Below, piece by piece: positions 17,653 to 24,402 of a stretch of DNA of 64,000 bases. The notes beneath the pieces were generated by a model. The model worked only from the letters and a program-made list of their open reading frames with translations. It was not told the origin of the DNA and did no database searches. The position numbers and the translations under genes were made by a program. The DNA is from Escherichia phage AV112. Every line of letters begins with the position of its first letter. Position 1 is the first letter of the stretch. The DNA is taken from the sequence record OR352942.1; one strand, written 5' to 3'.

Positions 17653-18559
17653 TAATTACACTTGTTAATTTAGAAAGACCAGATTTTACAAAGTATGAAT
17701 AAATCTTGCCTTTAGGTTGTGGTTTATATGAGTTATAATACTCTATAATGGTTGAAGCAATATTATCAGGGATATAATCAAAATCAATGAGAACCAAATT
17801 TTCTTGATACCGTTTATATTCTTCTGCACTTAATAATACTTCAGCTTGAGAACGGTCATTGGCAATTGCTTCAATAATCGTTGTTTTCATGCTCGGAGTT
17901 CGTTCACCATCAACTCTGGTAAACCAGAAGTCGCCGCGAACTCGAACAGATGCAACGCCGTCTTTACGGTCACCTTTAAGAATTTTAGTCATGCAATCAA
18001 TTTCAGCAGAACCATTCTTAATTTTAACCCATTTTTTCTGTGGTGGCGACCACTGTTTAACGTTAGGATATTTGTGTAATTGTGTAAAGTCGCCATCTGA
18101 TGCAACAATACATACCTTATGTCCAGCTAATGACAAATATTTAGTTAATACACCGATATGGTCATCCGCTTCATATTTGTCGATATCCATTACAACGTAT
18201 GGCATGTATTTCTTAATCTCATCAACAACTTGACGGAGTGCAGTAAAATATCCTTCCCAATCCCACTTTGAAGCTTCACGATCGGTTTTACGATTTTTCT
18301 TGTAATAGTAAGCAAAGTCACGACGCCAATAACCTGAAGTAGCATTATCCATACACAATACAAATTTTGTATAGCCTTGCTTACGGAACATCACTACGTT
18401 TTTACGAATTGAATTCAAGATTACATGGCGAACCATCGGAACAGTAATTTTATCACCGTCTTCAAAGTTGTTTAATGCAGCTGCTAATGCAATGTTACTA
18501 AAGTCGGCAAGTGCAATACCTTCTTTGTAATCTTCATCCAACATCATTTCTAAATCCAT
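17642..18559 (-). CDS. rnh: RNase H (5'-3' exonuclease, FEN family)
   Basis: 305 aa; acidic metal-binding clusters; synteny. Confidence 0.85.
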   Translation of the reverse strand: MDLEMMLDEDYKEGIALADFSNIALAAALNNFEDGDKITVPMVRHVILNSIRKNVVMFRKQGYTKFVLCMDNATSGYWRRDFAYYYKKNRKTDREASKWDWEGYFTALRQVVDEIKKYMPYVVMDIDKYEADDHIGVLTKYLSLAGHKVCIVASDGDFTQLHKYPNVKQWSPPQKKWVKIKNGSAEIDCMTKILKGDRKDGVASVRVRGDFWFTRVDGERTPSMKTTIIEAIANDRSQAEVLLSAEEYKRYQENLVLIDFDYIPDNIASTIIEYYNSYKPQPKGKIYSYFVKSGLSKLTSVINEF

Positions 18560-18624
18560 ATGAACCTCTTGTTCAGTTAGTCAACTTGACTATAGTAACA
18601 TACTCATTTGAAAGCGTAAACTGG

Positions 18625-18632
18625 TATAAATA
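18625..18632 (+). promoter_or_regulatory. late promoter TATAAATA for gene 34
   Basis: exact TATAAATA 30 nt upstream of gene 34 ATG. Confidence 0.7.
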
Positions 18633-18662
18633 AGTATTATTGAAACAATAAAGGAAAAACGA

Positions 18663-21600
18663 ATGGCCGACATCAAACGTAAGTTCAGAGCCGAAGACGG
18701 TCTGGACGCCGGTGGCGACAAGATTGTTAACGTAGCATTAGCCGACCGTACAGTAGGTACTGATGGCGTAAACGTTGACTTCCTGGTACAAGAAAACACC
18801 GTTCAAGTATATGATTCTACGCGCGGATATAACAAAGGATTTGTTGTTCTTTATGACAACCGTTTATATCAAGCAATAAATGATATCGTGTCTCCTTCCG
18901 GGGCATTTAACCTTTTACAATGGCGTGCAGTTCGTACCGATGCACAATGGATAACTGTCTCTTCTGGGACTTATCAACTTTCTTCAGGTGAATCGATTTC
19001 GGTTAACACTGGTGCCGGCAATGATATGGTTTTCACATTGCCAAATGCGCCGGTTGATGGTGACACTGTTGTTTTGGCTGATATTGGTGGAAGAACCGGG
19101 ACAGTTAAAGTACAGATTAACGCGTCTGTGCAGAGTATTTTAAACTTTAGAGGTGAACAAGTTCGTACAGTTTTAATGACGCGCCCACGTTCACAACTAT
19201 TGTTTGTGTTTAGTAATCGTTTGTGGCAGATGTATATTACCGATTATGGTAAAGAATCAATCACTGTTACACCTGCGGCACCATATCAAGCACAAGCAAA
19301 TGATTTTATCGTTCGTCGTTTTACTAGTGCAGCACCAATCAACATTACACTTCCACGTAATGCTAACAATGGTGATATAATCAGCCTAGTCGATTTAGAT
19401 AGATTAAACCCACTGTATCATACAATTGTTAAAACATTTGATGATACAACGTCTATTGGTGAAGTCGGGACTCATATTGCCGAAGGCAGAAATGACTCTG
19501 ACGCGTTTTTTGTTTTTGATGCTGCAAATAGTTTATGGCGTATATGGGAAGGCGACCAGAAATCGCGTCTTCGTATTATCCGTGTGGATTCAAATATTCG
19601 TCCAAATGAAGAAGTTCTTATTTTTGGCACAAATAACGCTACAGCCGGAACTATTAATCTTACGCTGCCTTCTGGAATTTTGAGTGGTGACACCGTTAAA
19701 ATTTCAATGAACTACATGCGTAAAGGCCAAACAGTAAAAATTAAAGCTGCCGAAGGTGATACAATTGCTTCTTCTGTTGCGTTGCTTCAGTTCCCTAAAC
19801 GTTCGGAGTATCCACCTGATGCACAATGGGTCTCTGTTACTGAACTAGAATTCAATGGCACTACTTCATATGTTCCTGTATTAGAATTAGCGTATATCGA
19901 AGACACCGTTGCTGGTACGCGTTATTGGGTTGTTAAACAAAACGTCCCAACTGTAGAACGTGTCGATGCTGGAACTGATACAACTAGAGCTCGTGTAGGT
20001 GTTATTGCTCTTGCAACTCAGGCACAGGCAAATGTTGATTTTGAAAATTCTCCGGCTAAAGAAGTTGCTATTACTCCTGAAACGTTGGCAAATCGTACAG
20101 CAACTGAAGCTCGACGTGGTATCGCCAAAATTGCTACAACAGCACAAGTTAACCAGAATTCCACAGCAACATTTGTAGACGATACTATTGTTACGCCTAA
20201 AAAATTAAATGAGCGTACAGCAACTGAAACTCGTCGCGGTCTTGCTGAAATTGCTACTCAGACTGAAACCGATGCTGGTCTTGATGACACAACGATTATT
20301 ACGCCTAAGAAATTACAGGCACGTCAGGGTTCCGAAACACTATCGGGTATAGTTAAATATGTATCAACTACTTCTGCTACTCCTGCCGAAACTCGTGGGG
20401 CTGCAGGCACTAATGTTTATAATAAAACCGTAAATAATTTAACTATTTCTCCTAAAGCCCTTGACCAATATAAAGCAACTTACGCCCAACAAGGTGCAGT
20501 AATTTTAGCTATTGATAGTGAAGTAATTGCTGGACAATCTCAGTCTGGATACTCTCATGCTGTAGTAACTCCTGAAACACTACATAAGAAAACTTCTACT
20601 GATGGACGTATTGGTTTAATTGAAATTGCTACGCAAGCAGAAACTAATGCTGGGACTGATTATACACGTGCAGTAACGCCTAAGACGTTAAATGATAGGA
20701 GAGCGACGGAAGGATTATCCGGCATAGCCGAAATTGCTACGCAAGTTGAATTTGATACTGGAACTGATGATACTCGTATCTCGACTCCACTGAAAATTAA
20801 AACTCATTTTGATTCTTCTGACCGTACCAGTGTTAATTCTGATTCCGGACTTATTGAAGAAGGAACCTTGTGGAACCATTATACTCTTGATATTTCTAAA
20901 GCAAATGAAACACAACGTGGTACACTTCGCGTAGCGACCCAGGCAGAATCTAATGCAGGAACTTTAGATGATGTTCTTATTACTCCTAAAAAGCTTTTAG
21001 GGACTAAGTCCACTGAAACGTCTGAAGGTGTAATCAAGGTTGCAACCCAGTCTGAAACTGTGACTGGAACGTCAGCGAACACTGCTGTATCTCCTAAGAA
21101 TTTAAAATGGATTGTGCAGAGTGAACCAACATGGGCTGCTACTACAGCAATTCGCGGATTCGTTAAAACTTCATCCGGTTCTATTACATTCGTTGGTAAT
21201 GATACAGTCGGTTCTACACAAAACTTAGAGCTATACGAGAAAAATAGCTATGCAGTATCACCGTATGAATTAAACCGTGTATTGGCAAATTACTTGCCAT
21301 TAAAAGCAAAAGCTGCTGACGCAAATTTATTAGATGGCCTAGATTCATCTCAGTTCATTCGTAGGGACATTGCACAGACGGTTAATGGTTCACTAACCTT
21401 AACCCAACAAACGAATCTGAGTGCCCCTCTTGTATCATCTAGTACGGCTACGTTTGGTGGTTCGGTATCTGCTAATAGTACATTAACTATTTCTAATACA
21501 GGTGCTTCAACTCGCTTAATATTTGAAAAAGGTCCACAAACTGGAAACAACCCTGCTCAGGCGATGAATATCCGTGTATGGGGTAACCAATTCGCCGGCG

Positions 21601-22538
21601 GTTCTGATACATCTCGTGCTACGATATTTGAAGTTGGTGATGAAACATCTAACCACTTTTATTCACAACGGGATAACCTTGGTAATATTACTTTCAGCAT
21701 CAACGGTACAGTTCGGCCGATTAATGTTAATGCATCCGGAACATTGAATGCTAATGGTGCGGCAACATTTGGACGTTCGGTGACAGCACAGGGTGAATTT
21801 ATAACCTATAGTGCAAACGCATTCAGAGCAATTAGTGGTAATTACGGATTCTTTATTCGTAATGATGCTGTTAATACCTATTTTATGCTTACTGCATCAG
21901 GTGATCAGACTGGCGGATTTAATGGATTACGTCCTTTAGCTATTAATAATGCATCCGGCCAAGTAACGATTGGTGAAAGCTTAATCATTGCCAAAGGTGC
22001 TACTATAAATTCAGATGGTTTAACTGTTAACTCGAGAATTCGTTCTCAGGGCACTAAAACCGCTGATTTATACACCCGTGCACCGACATCTGATACTGTA
22101 GGATTCTGGTCAATTGACATTAATGATTCAGCTACTTATAACCAATTCCCGGGTTATTTTAAAATGGTTGAAAAAACTAATGAAGTGACTGGGCTTCCAT
22201 ACTTAGAACGTGGCGAAGAAGTTAAATCTCCTGGTACATTGACTCAGTTTGGTAATACACTTGATTCACTTTACCAAGATTGGATTACTTATCCAACAAC
22301 TCCAGAAGCACGTACAACCCGTTGGACACGTACATGGCAGAAAACTAAAAATTCTTGGTCGAGTTTTGTTCAGGTATTTGATGGCGGAAACCCTCCTCAA
22401 CCTTCTGATATTGGCGCTTTACCTTCTGATAATGCAACAATCGGAAACTTGACAATAAGGGATTTCTTAAGGATTGGTAATGTTCGCATTATTCCAGACC
22501 CTGTGAATAAAACTGTTAAATTTGAGTGGATTGAATAA
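18663..22538 (+). CDS. 34: gp34 long tail fiber proximal subunit
   Basis: 1291 aa (T4 gp34 about 1289); internal ~35-aa repeats (RRG-IA-IATQ...TPKKL). Confidence 0.92.
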   Translation: MADIKRKFRAEDGLDAGGDKIVNVALADRTVGTDGVNVDFLVQENTVQVYDSTRGYNKGFVVLYDNRLYQAINDIVSPSGAFNLLQWRAVRTDAQWITVSSGTYQLSSGESISVNTGAGNDMVFTLPNAPVDGDTVVLADIGGRTGTVKVQINASVQSILNFRGEQVRTVLMTRPRSQLLFVFSNRLWQMYITDYGKESITVTPAAPYQAQANDFIVRRFTSAAPINITLPRNANNGDIISLVDLDRLNPLYHTIVKTFDDTTSIGEVGTHIAEGRNDSDAFFVFDAANSLWRIWEGDQKSRLRIIRVDSNIRPNEEVLIFGTNNATAGTINLTLPSGILSGDTVKISMNYMRKGQTVKIKAAEGDTIASSVALLQFPKRSEYPPDAQWVSVTELEFNGTTSYVPVLELAYIEDTVAGTRYWVVKQNVPTVERVDAGTDTTRARVGVIALATQAQANVDFENSPAKEVAITPETLANRTATEARRGIAKIATTAQVNQNSTATFVDDTIVTPKKLNERTATETRRGLAEIATQTETDAGLDDTTIITPKKLQARQGSETLSGIVKYVSTTSATPAETRGAAGTNVYNKTVNNLTISPKALDQYKATYAQQGAVILAIDSEVIAGQSQSGYSHAVVTPETLHKKTSTDGRIGLIEIATQAETNAGTDYTRAVTPKTLNDRRATEGLSGIAEIATQVEFDTGTDDTRISTPLKIKTHFDSSDRTSVNSDSGLIEEGTLWNHYTLDISKANETQRGTLRVATQAESNAGTLDDVLITPKKLLGTKSTETSEGVIKVATQSETVTGTSANTAVSPKNLKWIVQSEPTWAATTAIRGFVKTSSGSITFVGNDTVGSTQNLELYEKNSYAVSPYELNRVLANYLPLKAKAADANLLDGLDSSQFIRRDIAQTVNGSLTLTQQTNLSAPLVSSSTATFGGSVSANSTLTISNTGASTRLIFEKGPQTGNNPAQAMNIRVWGNQFAGGSDTSRATIFEVGDETSNHFYSQRDNLGNITFSINGTVRPINVNASGTLNANGAATFGRSVTAQGEFITYSANAFRAISGNYGFFIRNDAVNTYFMLTASGDQTGGFNGLRPLAINNASGQVTIGESLIIAKGATINSDGLTVNSRIRSQGTKTADLYTRAPTSDTVGFWSIDINDSATYNQFPGYFKMVEKTNEVTGLPYLERGEEVKSPGTLTQFGNTLDSLYQDWITYPTTPEARTTRWTRTWQKTKNSWSSFVQVFDGGNPPQPSDIGALPSDNATIGNLTIRDFLRIGNVRIIPDPVNKTVKFEWIE

Positions 22539-22546
22539 GAGGTATT

Positions 22547-23674
22547 ATGGAAAAATTTATGGCTAAGTTCGGACAAGGATACGTCCAAACGCCATTTTTA
22601 TCGGAAAGCAATTCAGTACGATTTAAATTAAGCATAGCGGGCTCTTGCCCGCTATCAACATCTCCTGCTTATATTAAGTTCCAAGATAATCCACTTGGGT
22701 CCCAGGTTTTTTCCGTTGGATTAAACGTTCGTGTAATAAATCCTACAACAGGTGCAGTAGTTGAATCTAAGTCATATAATTTCTCTACTGAAAACGACGC
22801 CACGTCAAGTGCATTTGTTACTTACATGGACACATATGCTTCTAATTTTATATTTGCTCTTGTTACTAACTCTAAAACAAACTTTCCTCCTGAAGTTCTC
22901 GCATGGTTTACCAAAGTTGGGAGTTCTGTTATTCCATTAGCTCAACAAGTTTTAAATATAGTGGACATTTCTTATTCTGCATTTTATATTTCTGGTAAGA
23001 ATGCTATAGCACTAGAACATATTAAGTATAGTAATAAGAAAACTTCAACCGACTATAGTACACCACTTGATGTTGTGTACGACACGATTGATGATATTGG
23101 TGCTACCGGCTTTCCTAGTCGTACGTACGAATCGACAGACACATTTTTATCTGCTGTTGGAGGTACTAATAATGAAATTAAAAGGATGCCTACAACGTCC
23201 CTTATTACACCTCTCGCTGGGTATAAATTGAAGGCTGGAGATTTCCTTTATATGAAATTCCAACTAATGGCTGATGCTGATTTGTTAGCACAAGGGACGA
23301 CACGACTTTCTATTCGTTTCTTTAAATCTCCTTCTACTTCACCTATTTCATTTAAGGATATAAACTTTGATGGGGGCGCAGGTGAATGGAAGATATATGA
23401 AGACTACATAGAAATTCCTGCTGGTGCCGACGGGTTCACGATTTATTGTTATCGTACAGCTCCAGTTGGGCAAGGTGGATTAAGAAATGTTATATTCACT
23501 GAAGTATCATGTAATGGAAGCGTTTCAAAACCTGCCGAGTTTGGTATAAATGGTATTCGTGTAAATTATGTTTCAGAATCTTTAAGTGCCCCAGACATAA
23601 TGACATTACCTACTCAATCTTCAACTGATACTGGTAAGGTATTTGGACAAGAATTTAAAGAAGCATCAGAATAA
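22547..23674 (+). CDS. 35: gp35 long tail fiber hinge connector
   Basis: 375 aa; synteny 34-35-36-37. Confidence 0.85.
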   Translation: MEKFMAKFGQGYVQTPFLSESNSVRFKLSIAGSCPLSTSPAYIKFQDNPLGSQVFSVGLNVRVINPTTGAVVESKSYNFSTENDATSSAFVTYMDTYASNFIFALVTNSKTNFPPEVLAWFTKVGSSVIPLAQQVLNIVDISYSAFYISGKNAIALEHIKYSNKKTSTDYSTPLDVVYDTIDDIGATGFPSRTYESTDTFLSAVGGTNNEIKRMPTTSLITPLAGYKLKAGDFLYMKFQLMADADLLAQGTTRLSIRFFKSPSTSPISFKDINFDGGAGEWKIYEDYIEIPAGADGFTIYCYRTAPVGQGGLRNVIFTEVSCNGSVSKPAEFGINGIRVNYVSESLSAPDIMTLPTQSSTDTGKVFGQEFKEASE

Positions 23675-23679
23675 ATTTA

Positions 23680-23697
23680 GGGAGACTTCGGTCTCCC
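23680..23697 (+). terminator. UUCG-tetraloop hairpin terminator after gene 35
   Basis: GGGAGAC-UUCG-GUCUCCC then AUUUUU. Confidence 0.6.
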
Positions 23698-23704
23698 ATT
23701 TTTG

Positions 23705-23712
23705 TATAAATA
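23705..23712 (+). promoter_or_regulatory. late promoter TATAAATA for gene 36
   Basis: exact TATAAATA 24 nt upstream of gene 36 ATG. Confidence 0.7.
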
Positions 23713-23736
23713 TGGTATACATATAAGGAGACAACT

Positions 23737-24402
23737 ATGGCCGATTTAAAAGCTGGTAGTACAACTGGCGGTGCCGTTATATGGCATCAAGGTAATTTCC
23801 CTTTAATGCCAGCAGGTGATGACGTCCTGTATAAAACGTTTAAACTTTATTCAGAATATAATAAACCACAAGCGGCTGATAACGATTTTGTTTCTAAAGC
23901 TAATGGTGGTACTTTTGCGTCAAAGGTAACATTTAATGCTGGTGTTCAAGTACCATATGCTATAAACAATACAAACCAAAGCGGTATTTATCCTGGCAAT
24001 GGCGACGCAGCTACTTTTGCTACAGCAAATATTGATATTGTTTCATGGTATGGTATTGGTTTTAAATCATCACAGGGTTCAGCAGCCCGAACTGTTGTAA
24101 TTAACACACGTAATGGTGATATTAGTACAAAAGGTGTTGTGTCGGCAGCTGGTCAAGTAAGAAGTGATGCGACTGCTCCTATAGCAGCGAATGACCTTAC
24201 TAGAAAAGATTATGTTGATGGACGAATAAATATTGTTACGGATAACGCAAATTCCCGTGTATTGCGTTCTGGCGATACCATGGCTGGTACTTTAACAGCA
24301 CCAAACTTTTTCTCACAGAATCCGGCATCCGAGGCTAATCATGTTCCTCGTTTCGACCAGATTGTAATTAAAGATTCTGTTCAAGATTTCGGCTATTATT
24401 AA
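23737..24402 (+). CDS. 36: gp36 long tail fiber distal connector
   Basis: 221 aa, same length as T4 gp36. Confidence 0.88.

Follow-up and report, generated by a model that had tools for sequence, protein, structure and literature searches.

A repetitive stretch within a long open reading frame of Escherichia phage AV112 (sequence record OR352942.1) raises the question whether the repetition belongs to the encoded protein or to the DNA itself. An initial annotation of the 64,000 nucleotides analyzed here (hereafter the window) had assigned the frame to the tail fibre protein gp34. It had placed at least six repeats of about 35 amino acids, with a periodicity visible at the DNA level, at positions 19980–21125 and had regarded them as compatible with a repetitive fibre shaft, warning that one might take them for a repeat array without coding function. 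Our analysis leads us to hold with high confidence that the stretch encodes the rod (shaft) of gp34 in the form of ten diverged copies of a module of 36–49 amino acids.

The repeats lie in gene 34

The open reading frame spans positions 18663–22538 (+) and encodes 1291 amino acids followed by a stop codon. Its DNA is 100% identical to the gene annotated as 'long tail fiber' in Escherichia phage AV113. A phmmer comparison with PDB chains matched its product over the full length to T4 gp34 (chain 9x3r_M, E = 0, residues 1–1291 against 1–1289), with 5nxh (also at E = 0), 5nxf and 4uxe as further matches. The proteins of the window and of T4 share 81.5% amino acid identity overall and differ by one indel of 2 aa. 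The PHROG 972 profile is likewise matched from end to end (1–1246 of 1246), and the C-terminal part carries the Pfam domains PF21446 and PF21560 (Gp34_trimer and Gp34_2nd) with 101.8 and 128.9 bits at a cut-off of 27. The surrounding gene order, rnh (on the opposite strand)-34-35-36-37-38, agrees with the annotated T4 and AV113 records. Judged by its sequence, the frame is gene 34, coding for the proximal subunit of a T4-type long tail fibre, and the initial assignment is borne out by the 9x3r_M match, the PHROG profile and the gene order alike. T4 gp34 is a parallel homotrimer that forms the ~70 nm proximal half-fibre and is attached to gp9 (PMC3004832); by orthology, gp34 of the window would form a gp9-attached homotrimeric proximal half-fibre as well.

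Upstream of gene 34, at a distance of 31 nt from its ATG, positions 18625–18632 (+) read TATAAATA, the T4 late-promoter consensus. This is a consensus match only, and occurrences of this consensus in the window are not above chance. An antisense frame of 86 aa at 19887–20147 (-), which overlies units 1 and 2 of the repeats described below, was rejected as spurious; in T4, several stop codons interrupt the corresponding frame.

The repeat region comprises ten units

The repeat region as a whole covers aa 438–873 (19974–21281, +) and consists of ten units, one spacer of 29 aa and one linker of 9 aa. Each unit was evaluated in a leave-one-out HMM test against 2000 shuffled gp34 sequences. Seven units, all on the + strand, scored between 26.9 and 55.6 bits, a range in which none of the 2000 decoys was found. 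These are unit 1 (aa 438–477, 40 aa; 19974–20093; 28.1 bits), unit 2 (aa 478–517, 40 aa; 20094–20213; 51.4 bits), unit 3 (aa 518–553, 36 aa; 20214–20321; 55.6 bits), unit 6 (aa 643–678, 36 aa; 20589–20696; 47.0 bits), unit 7 (aa 679–715, 37 aa; 20697–20807; 26.9 bits), unit 8 (aa 745–780, 36 aa; 20895–21002; 32.8 bits) and unit 9 (aa 781–817, 37 aa; 21003–21113; 39.4 bits). Unit 4 (aa 554–602, 49 aa; 20322–20468, +), which contains a long variable loop, reached 10.0 bits (0/2000 decoys), and the divergent unit 5 (aa 603–642, 40 aa; 20469–20588, +) reached 7.2 bits (3/2000 decoys). Unit 10 (aa 827–873, 47 aa; 21141–21281, +), separated from unit 9 by the 9-aa linker and equipped with a long beta-hairpin loop, scored 0.8 bits, which falls short of significance at the sequence level. 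The signal is therefore strong for seven units and weak but significant for units 4 and 5, while unit 10 is recognized only by its motif, its register and the T4 crystal structure.

Acceptance of units 4, 5 and 10 rests on their register, two invariant motifs, conservation among orthologues and the published T4 structure. In ten orthologues (see below), unit 5 possesses G9 throughout and [ST]P-x-x-L in eight (the others having IPELL in vB_Mm5 and TASTL in ZPAH1), and both G9 and SP-x-x-L of unit 10 are present and conserved in all ten. Unit 4 corresponds to residues 552–598 of T4 gp34, an additional repeat that Granell 2017 introduced through structure-based sequence alignment (PMC5537660). 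Units 8 and 9 correspond to T4 residues 744–776 (solved in 5NXH) and 780–812 (also solved), and unit 10 to residues 823–868, which are structurally superimposable on other T4 units (PMC5537660).

The units measure 36–37 aa in five of ten cases, 40 aa in three and 47–49 aa in two, the latter being units 4 and 10 because of their long loops. All ten share an invariant core of G9, [ST]43-P44 and [LI]47, of which G9, S/T43 and P44 equal the published consensus in the numbering of Granell 2017 (PMC5537660). The loop between positions 21 and 40 is variable and carries long insertions in the fourth and last units, in agreement with T4 552–598 and 822–868. Thus, the earlier count of at least six repeats was correct and, since there are ten, conservative. 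Its span covered units 1–9 but missed unit 10, with which the array extends to 21281. The repeats themselves are real, but their period of 36–49 aa is not constant and is interrupted by 29 aa, and the proposed motif RRG-I/L-A-x-IATQ...TPKKL is matched letter for letter by the best units.

The periodicity is also apparent in a diagonal scan of gp34 with BLOSUM62, which is equivalent to the self dot-plot that had been suggested as a check: 14 off-diagonals, all within aa 428–815, lay above every shuffle. Self-BLASTP of gp34 returned the main diagonal only, and amino acid identity between units ranges from 9 to 59%. Pfam was scanned with gp34 as a whole, with its repeat region and with one unit at E-values up to 10, and no repeat family emerged; the only hit to the repeats, PF09089 (gp12-short_mid), had 17.8 bits, below its gathering cut-off of 25, and covered no more than profile positions 1–30. 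As no Pfam model covers the repeat, there is also no curated family threshold to pass, and about 430 residues of gp34 therefore stay blank in automated domain annotation. A single-sequence AlphaFold2 monomer model of aa 438–880 had a mean pLDDT of 28.5 and a pTM of 0.17, which is too low to inform on the fold.

Number and register of the units are conserved

T4 gp34, the orthologue of the protein analyzed here, has ten corresponding units whose positions are offset by 2 aa. Over the repeat region both proteins share 84.6% amino acid identity without gaps, and they agree in the invariant Gly9, Ser/Thr43 and Pro44, in the 29-aa spacer and in the long loops that distinguish units 4 and 10. They differ by point substitutions only, with the loop of unit 4 as the most diverged part, and not in architecture; the comparison of repeat counts with T4, likewise suggested at the outset, hence gives equal numbers and no indels across the region. 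An equal count is also seen in a wider set of ten gp34 orthologues (the window, T4 and eight others) from several Straboviridae subfamilies with 38–85% identity: ten units are present in register in each, and Gly9 is found in 99 of the 100 unit-by-orthologue cells. The repeat region is 427–458 aa long in this set. Moreover, 1474 phage records span at least 80% of the repeat region, and the matched length is nearly constant among them. Since T4 and the eight divergent orthologues hold all ten units in register, we consider the unit count to be fixed and ancient.

The spacer and a candidate promoter on the opposite strand

The spacer between units 7 and 8 (aa 716–744, FDSSDRTSVNSDSGLIEEGTLWNHYTLDI; 20808–20894, +) was not matched by the repeat HMM. 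Its length is 28–29 aa in the ten orthologues, and all of them conserve a SGL..G..W motif.

On the opposite strand, positions 20878–20903 (-) match by pattern the MotA-box middle-promoter consensus TGCTTTA-N13-TATAAT, and the aligned counterpart in T4 gene 34 reads TGCTTCA-N13-TATAAT. In T4, the orthologous site within gene 34 is the MotA-dependent middle promoter of oriG/ori(34), which has a MotA box at about -30 and a sigma-70 -10 element and reads against the gene; the point annotated as T4 rep_origin oriG lies ~64 nt downstream of this promoter in the sense of the RNA. The candidate promoter of the window is the orthologue of the T4 oriG/ori(34) promoter and has nothing to do with the protein repeats; it occupies spacer codons and, of unit 8, only the first three codons. 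T4 oriG needs a middle promoter and a downstream unwinding element within ~100 bp, not iterons, and oriG-driven initiation of replication during infection has been shown for T4 (PMC3016281). By orthology to T4 oriG, the site in the window is a putative origin. Positions 20750–20899 have a GC content of 35–37% and are modestly A+T-rich, within the range of the gene (32–51% per 100 nt).

Periodicity at the DNA level and alternative readings

The initially described DNA-level periodicity could be detected, but it is weak. With the minimum score set to 30, Tandem Repeats Finder (18000–24000) detected no array within the repeat region, and DNA copies compared pairwise are 60–85% identical across 15–67 nt. 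The DNA autocorrelation has peaks at lags of 108 and 375 nt with z of 5.7 and 5.6, compared with a maximum z of 4.55 in codon-permuted controls. When only synonymous codons were redrawn, these peaks were nearly gone (z of 1.8 and 2.2), and the redraw yielded nearly all of the autocorrelation (0.374 versus 0.390 observed at lag 108). As the synonymous redraw nearly removes the excess, the DNA periodicity is a faint reflection of the repeat in the protein. The differences from the T4 repeat region fall on codon positions 1, 2 and 3 in numbers of 74, 38 and 186, and of the changed codons among the 436, 156 are synonymous and 67 non-synonymous. On these sequence grounds, the repeat region lies in an uninterrupted open reading frame under purifying selection.

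We weighed three other readings against that of a protein shaft. The periodicity might be an element of the DNA, that is a non-coding or dual-use array, for example iterons for an origin inside gene 34. The orthologue of a replication origin does sit within the repeat region, and the autocorrelation at lags of 108 and 375 nt does exceed the codon-permuted controls. However, this autocorrelation is almost entirely reproduced by the synonymous redraw, the substitutions relative to T4 are mainly at third codon positions, the published needs of oriG do not include iterons, and an Rfam scan found nothing. This reading is already largely refuted and in our view vanishingly improbable, and we dropped the notion of a DNA repeat array, given the negative Tandem Repeats Finder result and DNA that is too diverged. 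Because no array was found and the protein accounts for the DNA signal, the risk of mistaking the region for a non-coding repeat array, of which the initial annotation had warned, is small. Could the repeats instead serve as host-recognition (receptor-binding) modules rather than as a structural spacer? The short fibre gp12, which binds receptors, contains related repeats, and the variable loops 21–40 are surface-exposed (PMC5537660). Yet gp34 is baseplate-proximal, receptor recognition being the task of the distal tip of gp37 (PMC3004832), and for the long loops of units 4 and 10, Granell 2017 proposes a contact with the tail sheath when the fibre is retracted (PMC5537660). In addition, the repeat region is better conserved across genera (38–70% identity) than the C-terminal part (18–47%), the opposite of what a host-range determinant would show, and we regard such a role as extremely improbable.

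The units could also stem from recent or dynamic tandem duplication, forming a variable-number array in which unequal recombination between units changes the length of the fibre. This would fit with units that are adjacent and up to 68% identical in DNA (units 2 and 3), with the use of the same codon at 51% of the positions at which two units have the same residue (42% expected), and with a super-period of 125 aa that ties units 1–3 to units 4–6. It is made very improbable by ten orthologues of 38–85% identity that have the same count and register, by the absence of indels relative to T4, by a unit-to-unit amino acid identity of merely 9–59%, and by the near-constant matched length across the 1474 phage records. 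We also considered a block duplication relating units 1–3 to units 4–6 at a shift of 125 aa. The pattern of unit lengths, 40/40/36 versus 49/40/36, agrees with it; the identity matrix of the units does not single out the pairs 2-5 or 1-4.

Proposed architecture of the rod

The reading of the repeats as modules of a fibre shaft agrees with published data on T4, in which a rod of ~400 Å (~40 nm) seen by EM was correlated with quasi-repeats at residues 438–797, which also occur in gp12 (PMC3004832). Furthermore, three T4 gp34 units have been solved by crystallography as trimeric mixed alpha-beta fibrous domains (Granell 2017, PDB 5NXH/5NXF; PMC5537660). In these T4 units, a module from each of the three chains contributes to one trimeric layer. 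Positions 1–8 make a tight turn toward the three-fold axis, and at the invariant Gly9 the chain turns by 90 degrees into a beta-strand that points outward (9–14). A short alpha-helix (16–20) comes next, followed by the surface loop of variable length (21–40) and a short beta-strand (41–42). Ser/Thr43 as N-cap and Pro44 open a short helix (44–47) that forms a three-helix bundle on the axis with its two partners. We infer that units 1–7 of the window gp34 fold like the solved units 8–10. Ten such stacked layers and the one conserved 29-aa insert would yield a thin and stiff rod whose length is fixed, flanked by the baseplate-binding N-terminal part and by the C-terminal part with its beta-helix and P3–P5 domains.

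The fixed number of units probably reflects a constraint on length. Ten modules and an insert of 28–29 aa are invariant in the ten orthologues, although identity falls to 38%. Tentatively, and as a possibility that we consider rather unlikely, the rod would therefore be a fixed-length ruler matched to the geometry of tail and whisker for fibre retraction, and the insert, the sole non-repeat one, would in Tequatrovirus, Mosigvirus and Gaprivervirus (the T-even lineage) also hold the oriG promoter and unwinding element on the opposite strand, hence placing its codons under a dual constraint.

Comparison with known fibre proteins

The repeats are the published quasi-repeats of gp34 and gp12 (Cerritelli 1996; Granell 2017) and as such already known. 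As they have been described since Cerritelli et al. 1996 and solved structurally, they are real but ordinary, and with a full-length T4 gp34 chain already in the PDB (9X3R) they have little discovery value. No relevant papers on PDB 9X3R, 9F4A and 9F4B were found in the literature, and a 2026 T4 cryo-EM preprint models the proximal rod without mention of the repeats in the passages at hand. The practical value of our analysis lies in annotation, in that the region holds ten units, extends to nt 21281 and ought not to be marked as a repeat element of the DNA. Two points are of minor comparative interest: unit number and spacing are conserved across Straboviridae, and the oriG promoter coincides in position with the one spacer that is not a repeat.

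Within the window, gp12 is not encoded and the repeat HMM matches gene 34 only. For T4 gp37, a single partial repeat at aa 88–104 has been reported (PMC3004832), and a partial repeat of this type was not found in gp37 of the window with the unit HMM at any threshold. A search of the PDB with the ten-unit profile returned gp34 and gp12-type chains only. In the gp12 chains 9f4b, 5iv5 and 5lye, 3–4 stretches each were matched by the unit profile, and phmmer matched these chains too; a match to phrog_910 also supports a module shared with short tail fibres. The N-terminal repeats of T4 gp12 (PDB 5IV5, 5LYE, 9F4B) are thus the same sequence module as the gp34 units, and residues 182–215 of T4 gp12 have been superimposed on gp34 units by Granell 2017 (PMC5537660). 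T4 gp12 is nevertheless a different protein with fewer copies, six being reported (PMC3004832), and, unlike gp34, it is a short fibre of the baseplate that binds LPS.

AV112 gene 34 encodes a T4-type proximal tail fibre subunit

The span 19980–21125, in which the initial annotation placed at least six repeats of ~35 aa, lies within an ORF on the plus strand (18663–22538) that encodes 1291 aa. Its designation as gp34, the proximal subunit of the long tail fibre, proved correct: T4 gp34 in the PDB (9x3r_M) aligns with the protein from end to end (E = 0; 81.5% identity, with one 2-aa indel outside the repeat region), and its C-terminal crystal fragments 5nxh, 5nxf and 4uxe align as well. Profile matches are to PHROG 972 (tail fiber protein proximal subunit), along its entire length, and to Pfam Gp34_trimer and Gp34_2nd in the C-terminal part. 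The gene is flanked as in T4: rnh lies on the other strand, and genes 35, 36 and 37 follow downstream. At the DNA level, Escherichia phage AV113 (Mosigvirus) has an identical gene, 'long tail fiber' (100%), and at least 80% of gene 34 is covered in 587 phage records. The AV113 record (OR352943.1) carries a misc_feature 'Dupl_ends_SPAdes' within gene 34 (window ~19556–19682), which is an assembly note for the meeting point of duplicated contig ends and not a biological feature.

The gp34 shaft contains ten diverged units

By motif scanning and alignment we delineated ten units, which together with a spacer and a linker occupy nt 19974–21281 on the plus strand. Units 1–7 follow each other directly at aa 438–477 (40 aa), 478–517 (40 aa), 518–553 (36 aa), 554–602 (49 aa), 603–642 (40 aa), 643–678 (36 aa) and 679–715 (37 aa). 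After a spacer of 29 aa (aa 716–744, nt 20808–20894) come unit 8 (aa 745–780, 36 aa), unit 9 (aa 781–817, 37 aa), a linker of 9 aa (aa 818–826) and unit 10 (aa 827–873, 47 aa), so that the span first noted takes in units 1–9 but leaves out unit 10. Likewise, the proposed consensus RRG-I/L-A-x-IATQ...TPKKL is literal in the best units, but only in those. All ten units share Gly at alignment column 9, Thr or Ser at column 43, Pro at column 44 and Leu or Ile at column 47, and columns 4, 14 and 15 are near-invariant (Thr, Ala and Thr/Ser). A search of the whole window found the module confined to gene 34; T4 gp37 is reported to have a partial copy, but the search gave no match to it in the window.

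Each unit was tested for significance with a leave-one-out HMM, for which 2000 shuffled versions of gp34 served as decoys. Units 1, 2, 3, 6, 7, 8 and 9 scored 26.9–55.6 bits, which none of the 2000 decoys reached; unit 4 scored 10.0 bits (0/2000 decoys) and unit 5 7.2 bits (3/2000), while unit 10 (0.8 bits) was not significant by sequence in this test. A self-comparison of gp34, run as a BLOSUM62 diagonal scan, confirmed the periodicity: 14 off-diagonals exceeded every shuffle, all inside residues 428–815, and their shifts (36, 40, 66, 102, 125, 138 and 161 aa and others) match unit-to-unit distances. The top off-diagonal (score 191) relates aa 452–565 to aa 577–690 (nt ~20016–20357 and ~20391–20732) at a shift of 125 aa, or a DNA lag of 375 nt, and sets units 1–3 (40/40/36 aa) onto units 4–6 (49/40/36 aa). 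This hints at an ancient duplication of a three-unit block, for which the unit identity matrix gives no clear support beyond the pair of units 3 and 6 (57%).

The periodicity is a property of the protein and is conserved among orthologues

Periodicity at the DNA level, as noted initially, could stem from a DNA repeat element, for example iterons for the replication origin embedded in gene 34. The periodicity is indeed real, with autocorrelation peaks at lags of 108 and 375 nt (39–40% matches versus 31% in codon-permuted controls; z 5.7 and 5.6, control maximum 4.55). However, it is weak, and Tandem Repeats Finder detected no array in the repeat region; a repeat finder returned only pieces of 15–67 nt, 60–85% identical and spaced by 108, 120, 198 and 375 nt. 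When synonymous codons alone were redrawn according to codon usage in the gene and the protein was left unchanged, autocorrelations of 0.374 (lag 108) and 0.377 (lag 375) were expected; the observed values are 0.390 and 0.399 (z 1.8 and 2.2). Because this redraw gives nearly the observed autocorrelation, the DNA periodicity in essence mirrors the protein repeat. Amino acids shared between two units use the identical codon in 51% of cases versus 42% expected, and nothing points to recent duplication or to gene conversion among the units. Rfam gave no match. Substitutions relative to T4 in the repeat region fall mostly at third codon positions (74/38/186 at positions 1/2/3), and 156 codon changes are synonymous and 67 non-synonymous, which marks the region as translated and subject to purifying selection. 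Furthermore, T4 oriG consists of a MotA-dependent middle promoter and a downstream unwinding element within ~100 bp (PMC3016281). Taken together, a DNA-level repeat element such as iterons is excluded.

A dynamic tandem array is likewise excluded by comparison with orthologues. All ten units recur in T4 gp34 in the same positions, apart from a shift of 2 aa, and the region is free of indels. We compared eight more gp34 genes (Gaprivervirus TH55, Gelderlandvirus SEA1, Shewanella Thanatos-1, Klebsiella Roth20, Acinetobacter Acj61, Serratia WSPA, Morganella vB_Mm5 and Aeromonas ZPAH1), whose repeat regions are 70% down to 38% identical to the window protein. In the full-length alignment, 99 of the 100 unit-by-orthologue cells at column 9 hold Gly, each of the ten positions retains the [ST]-P-x-x-hydrophobic motif apart from a few exceptions, and the repeat region measures 427–458 aa across the ten orthologues. 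All ten also have the spacer, at 28–29 aa and with an SGL..G..W motif, down to 38% identity. Since count, register, length and spacer are kept, the array is ancient and fixed in number rather than a variable-number repeat. Given its conserved length and motif, the spacer, which precedes the T4 fragment of solved structure (744–1289), would form a structural element of its own within the rod instead of a degenerate linker. A role of the repeats in receptor binding is unlikely, as gp34 is proximal in the fibre (PMC3004832) and the repeat region is better conserved across genera (38–70% identity) than the C-terminal part (18–47%), which fits a structural role over host recognition.

The conservation gradient along gene 34 reverses with distance. 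Relative to T4, divergence is greatest in the N-terminal third (72%), with the repeats at 85% and the C-terminal part at 88%; relative to other genera, it is by far greatest in the C-terminal third (18–47%, versus 32–70% for the N-terminal part and repeats).

An antisense orthologue of the oriG promoter overlaps the spacer

Within gene 34, a perfect T4 middle-promoter consensus with a MotA box (TGCTTTA-N13-TATAAT) lies antisense at 20878–20903 on the minus strand, and its aligned counterpart is present in T4 gene 34. It sits 64 nt upstream, in RNA sense, of window position ~20807, to which the point annotated in T4 as 'DNA replication origin oriG (ori34)' (NC_000866) maps. It is the orthologue of the T4 oriG promoter. 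OriG is presumed to prime replication via an R-loop, by analogy with oriF (PMC3016281). The promoter covers codons H739–A747, and the putative downstream unwinding element (region to ~20780) covers the rest of the spacer, the sole non-repeat insert in the rod. The motif recurs at the same place in Gaprivervirus TH55 and is absent by exact pattern from the seven more distant gp34 genes, all of which keep the spacer. The antisense oriG promoter is known biology for T4, and its overlap with the spacer is a minor curiosity.

On both strands of the window, TGCTTYA-N11-13-TANNNT has 11 matches versus 1.67 expected (reached in 0/100 shuffles), consistent with a T4-like MotA-dependent middle-promoter regulon in AV112; a match of this type lies inside rnh (17735–17759, minus strand). 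The T4 late-promoter consensus TATAAATA occurs on the plus strand at 18625–18632, where it precedes the gene 34 ATG by 31 nt, and at 23705–23712, just upstream of gene 36; with 6 copies versus 7.15 expected, the octamer is not above chance in the window. The second copy is preceded by a GC-rich hairpin with a T-run (GGGAGACTTCGGTCTCCCATTTTT, 23681–23703), which looks like a terminator after gene 35. An antisense ORF over units 1–2 (19887–20147, minus strand; 86 aa, TTG start) was dismissed as a chance ORF, the T4 frame containing several stop codons.

The repeat module in gp34 and gp12

AV112 gene 34, an orthologue of the T4 gene, thus carries ten related coding units in which the turn and helix-cap residues are invariant and whose count and register are fixed. 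The repeats are already described: the gp34 quasi-repeats were reported in 1996, and gp12 has six copies of them (PMC3004832); our seven strongly scoring units are the seven repeats of that description. Granell et al. extended the alignment, adding a repeat at 552–598 (PMC5537660). By their description, the module comprises a tight turn (1–8), a β-strand (9–14) that starts with a 90-degree turn at the conserved Gly9, an α-helix (16–20), a variable loop (21–40), a short strand (41–42) and a central helix (44–47); Ser/Thr43 and Pro44 precede this helix, which forms a three-helix bundle on the three-fold axis (PMC5537660). Our independent alignment gives exactly their numbering for the invariant residues and also recovers the long loops of the fourth and last units, which they suggested to touch the tail sheath (PMC5537660).

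The initial reading as fibre-shaft repeats is borne out by T4 gp34 orthology, the published quasi-repeats and the rod seen by EM (PMC3004832). Both the trimeric fold of the unit (PMC5537660) and its match to this rod (PMC3004832) come from the literature; a single-sequence AlphaFold2 monomer model (pLDDT 28.5) was uninformative on the fold. Units 1–7 of AV112 would be expected to fold like the solved units, and rod length may be set by ten stacked layers plus the insert. The array is a confirmed and already known feature. Searched against all PDB sequences, the ten-unit profile matched only gp34 chains and gp12-type short tail fibres, plus a marginal short-fibre match, with ten stretches in 9x3r; the gp12-type fibres have the module in common with gp34, at three to four stretches per chain.
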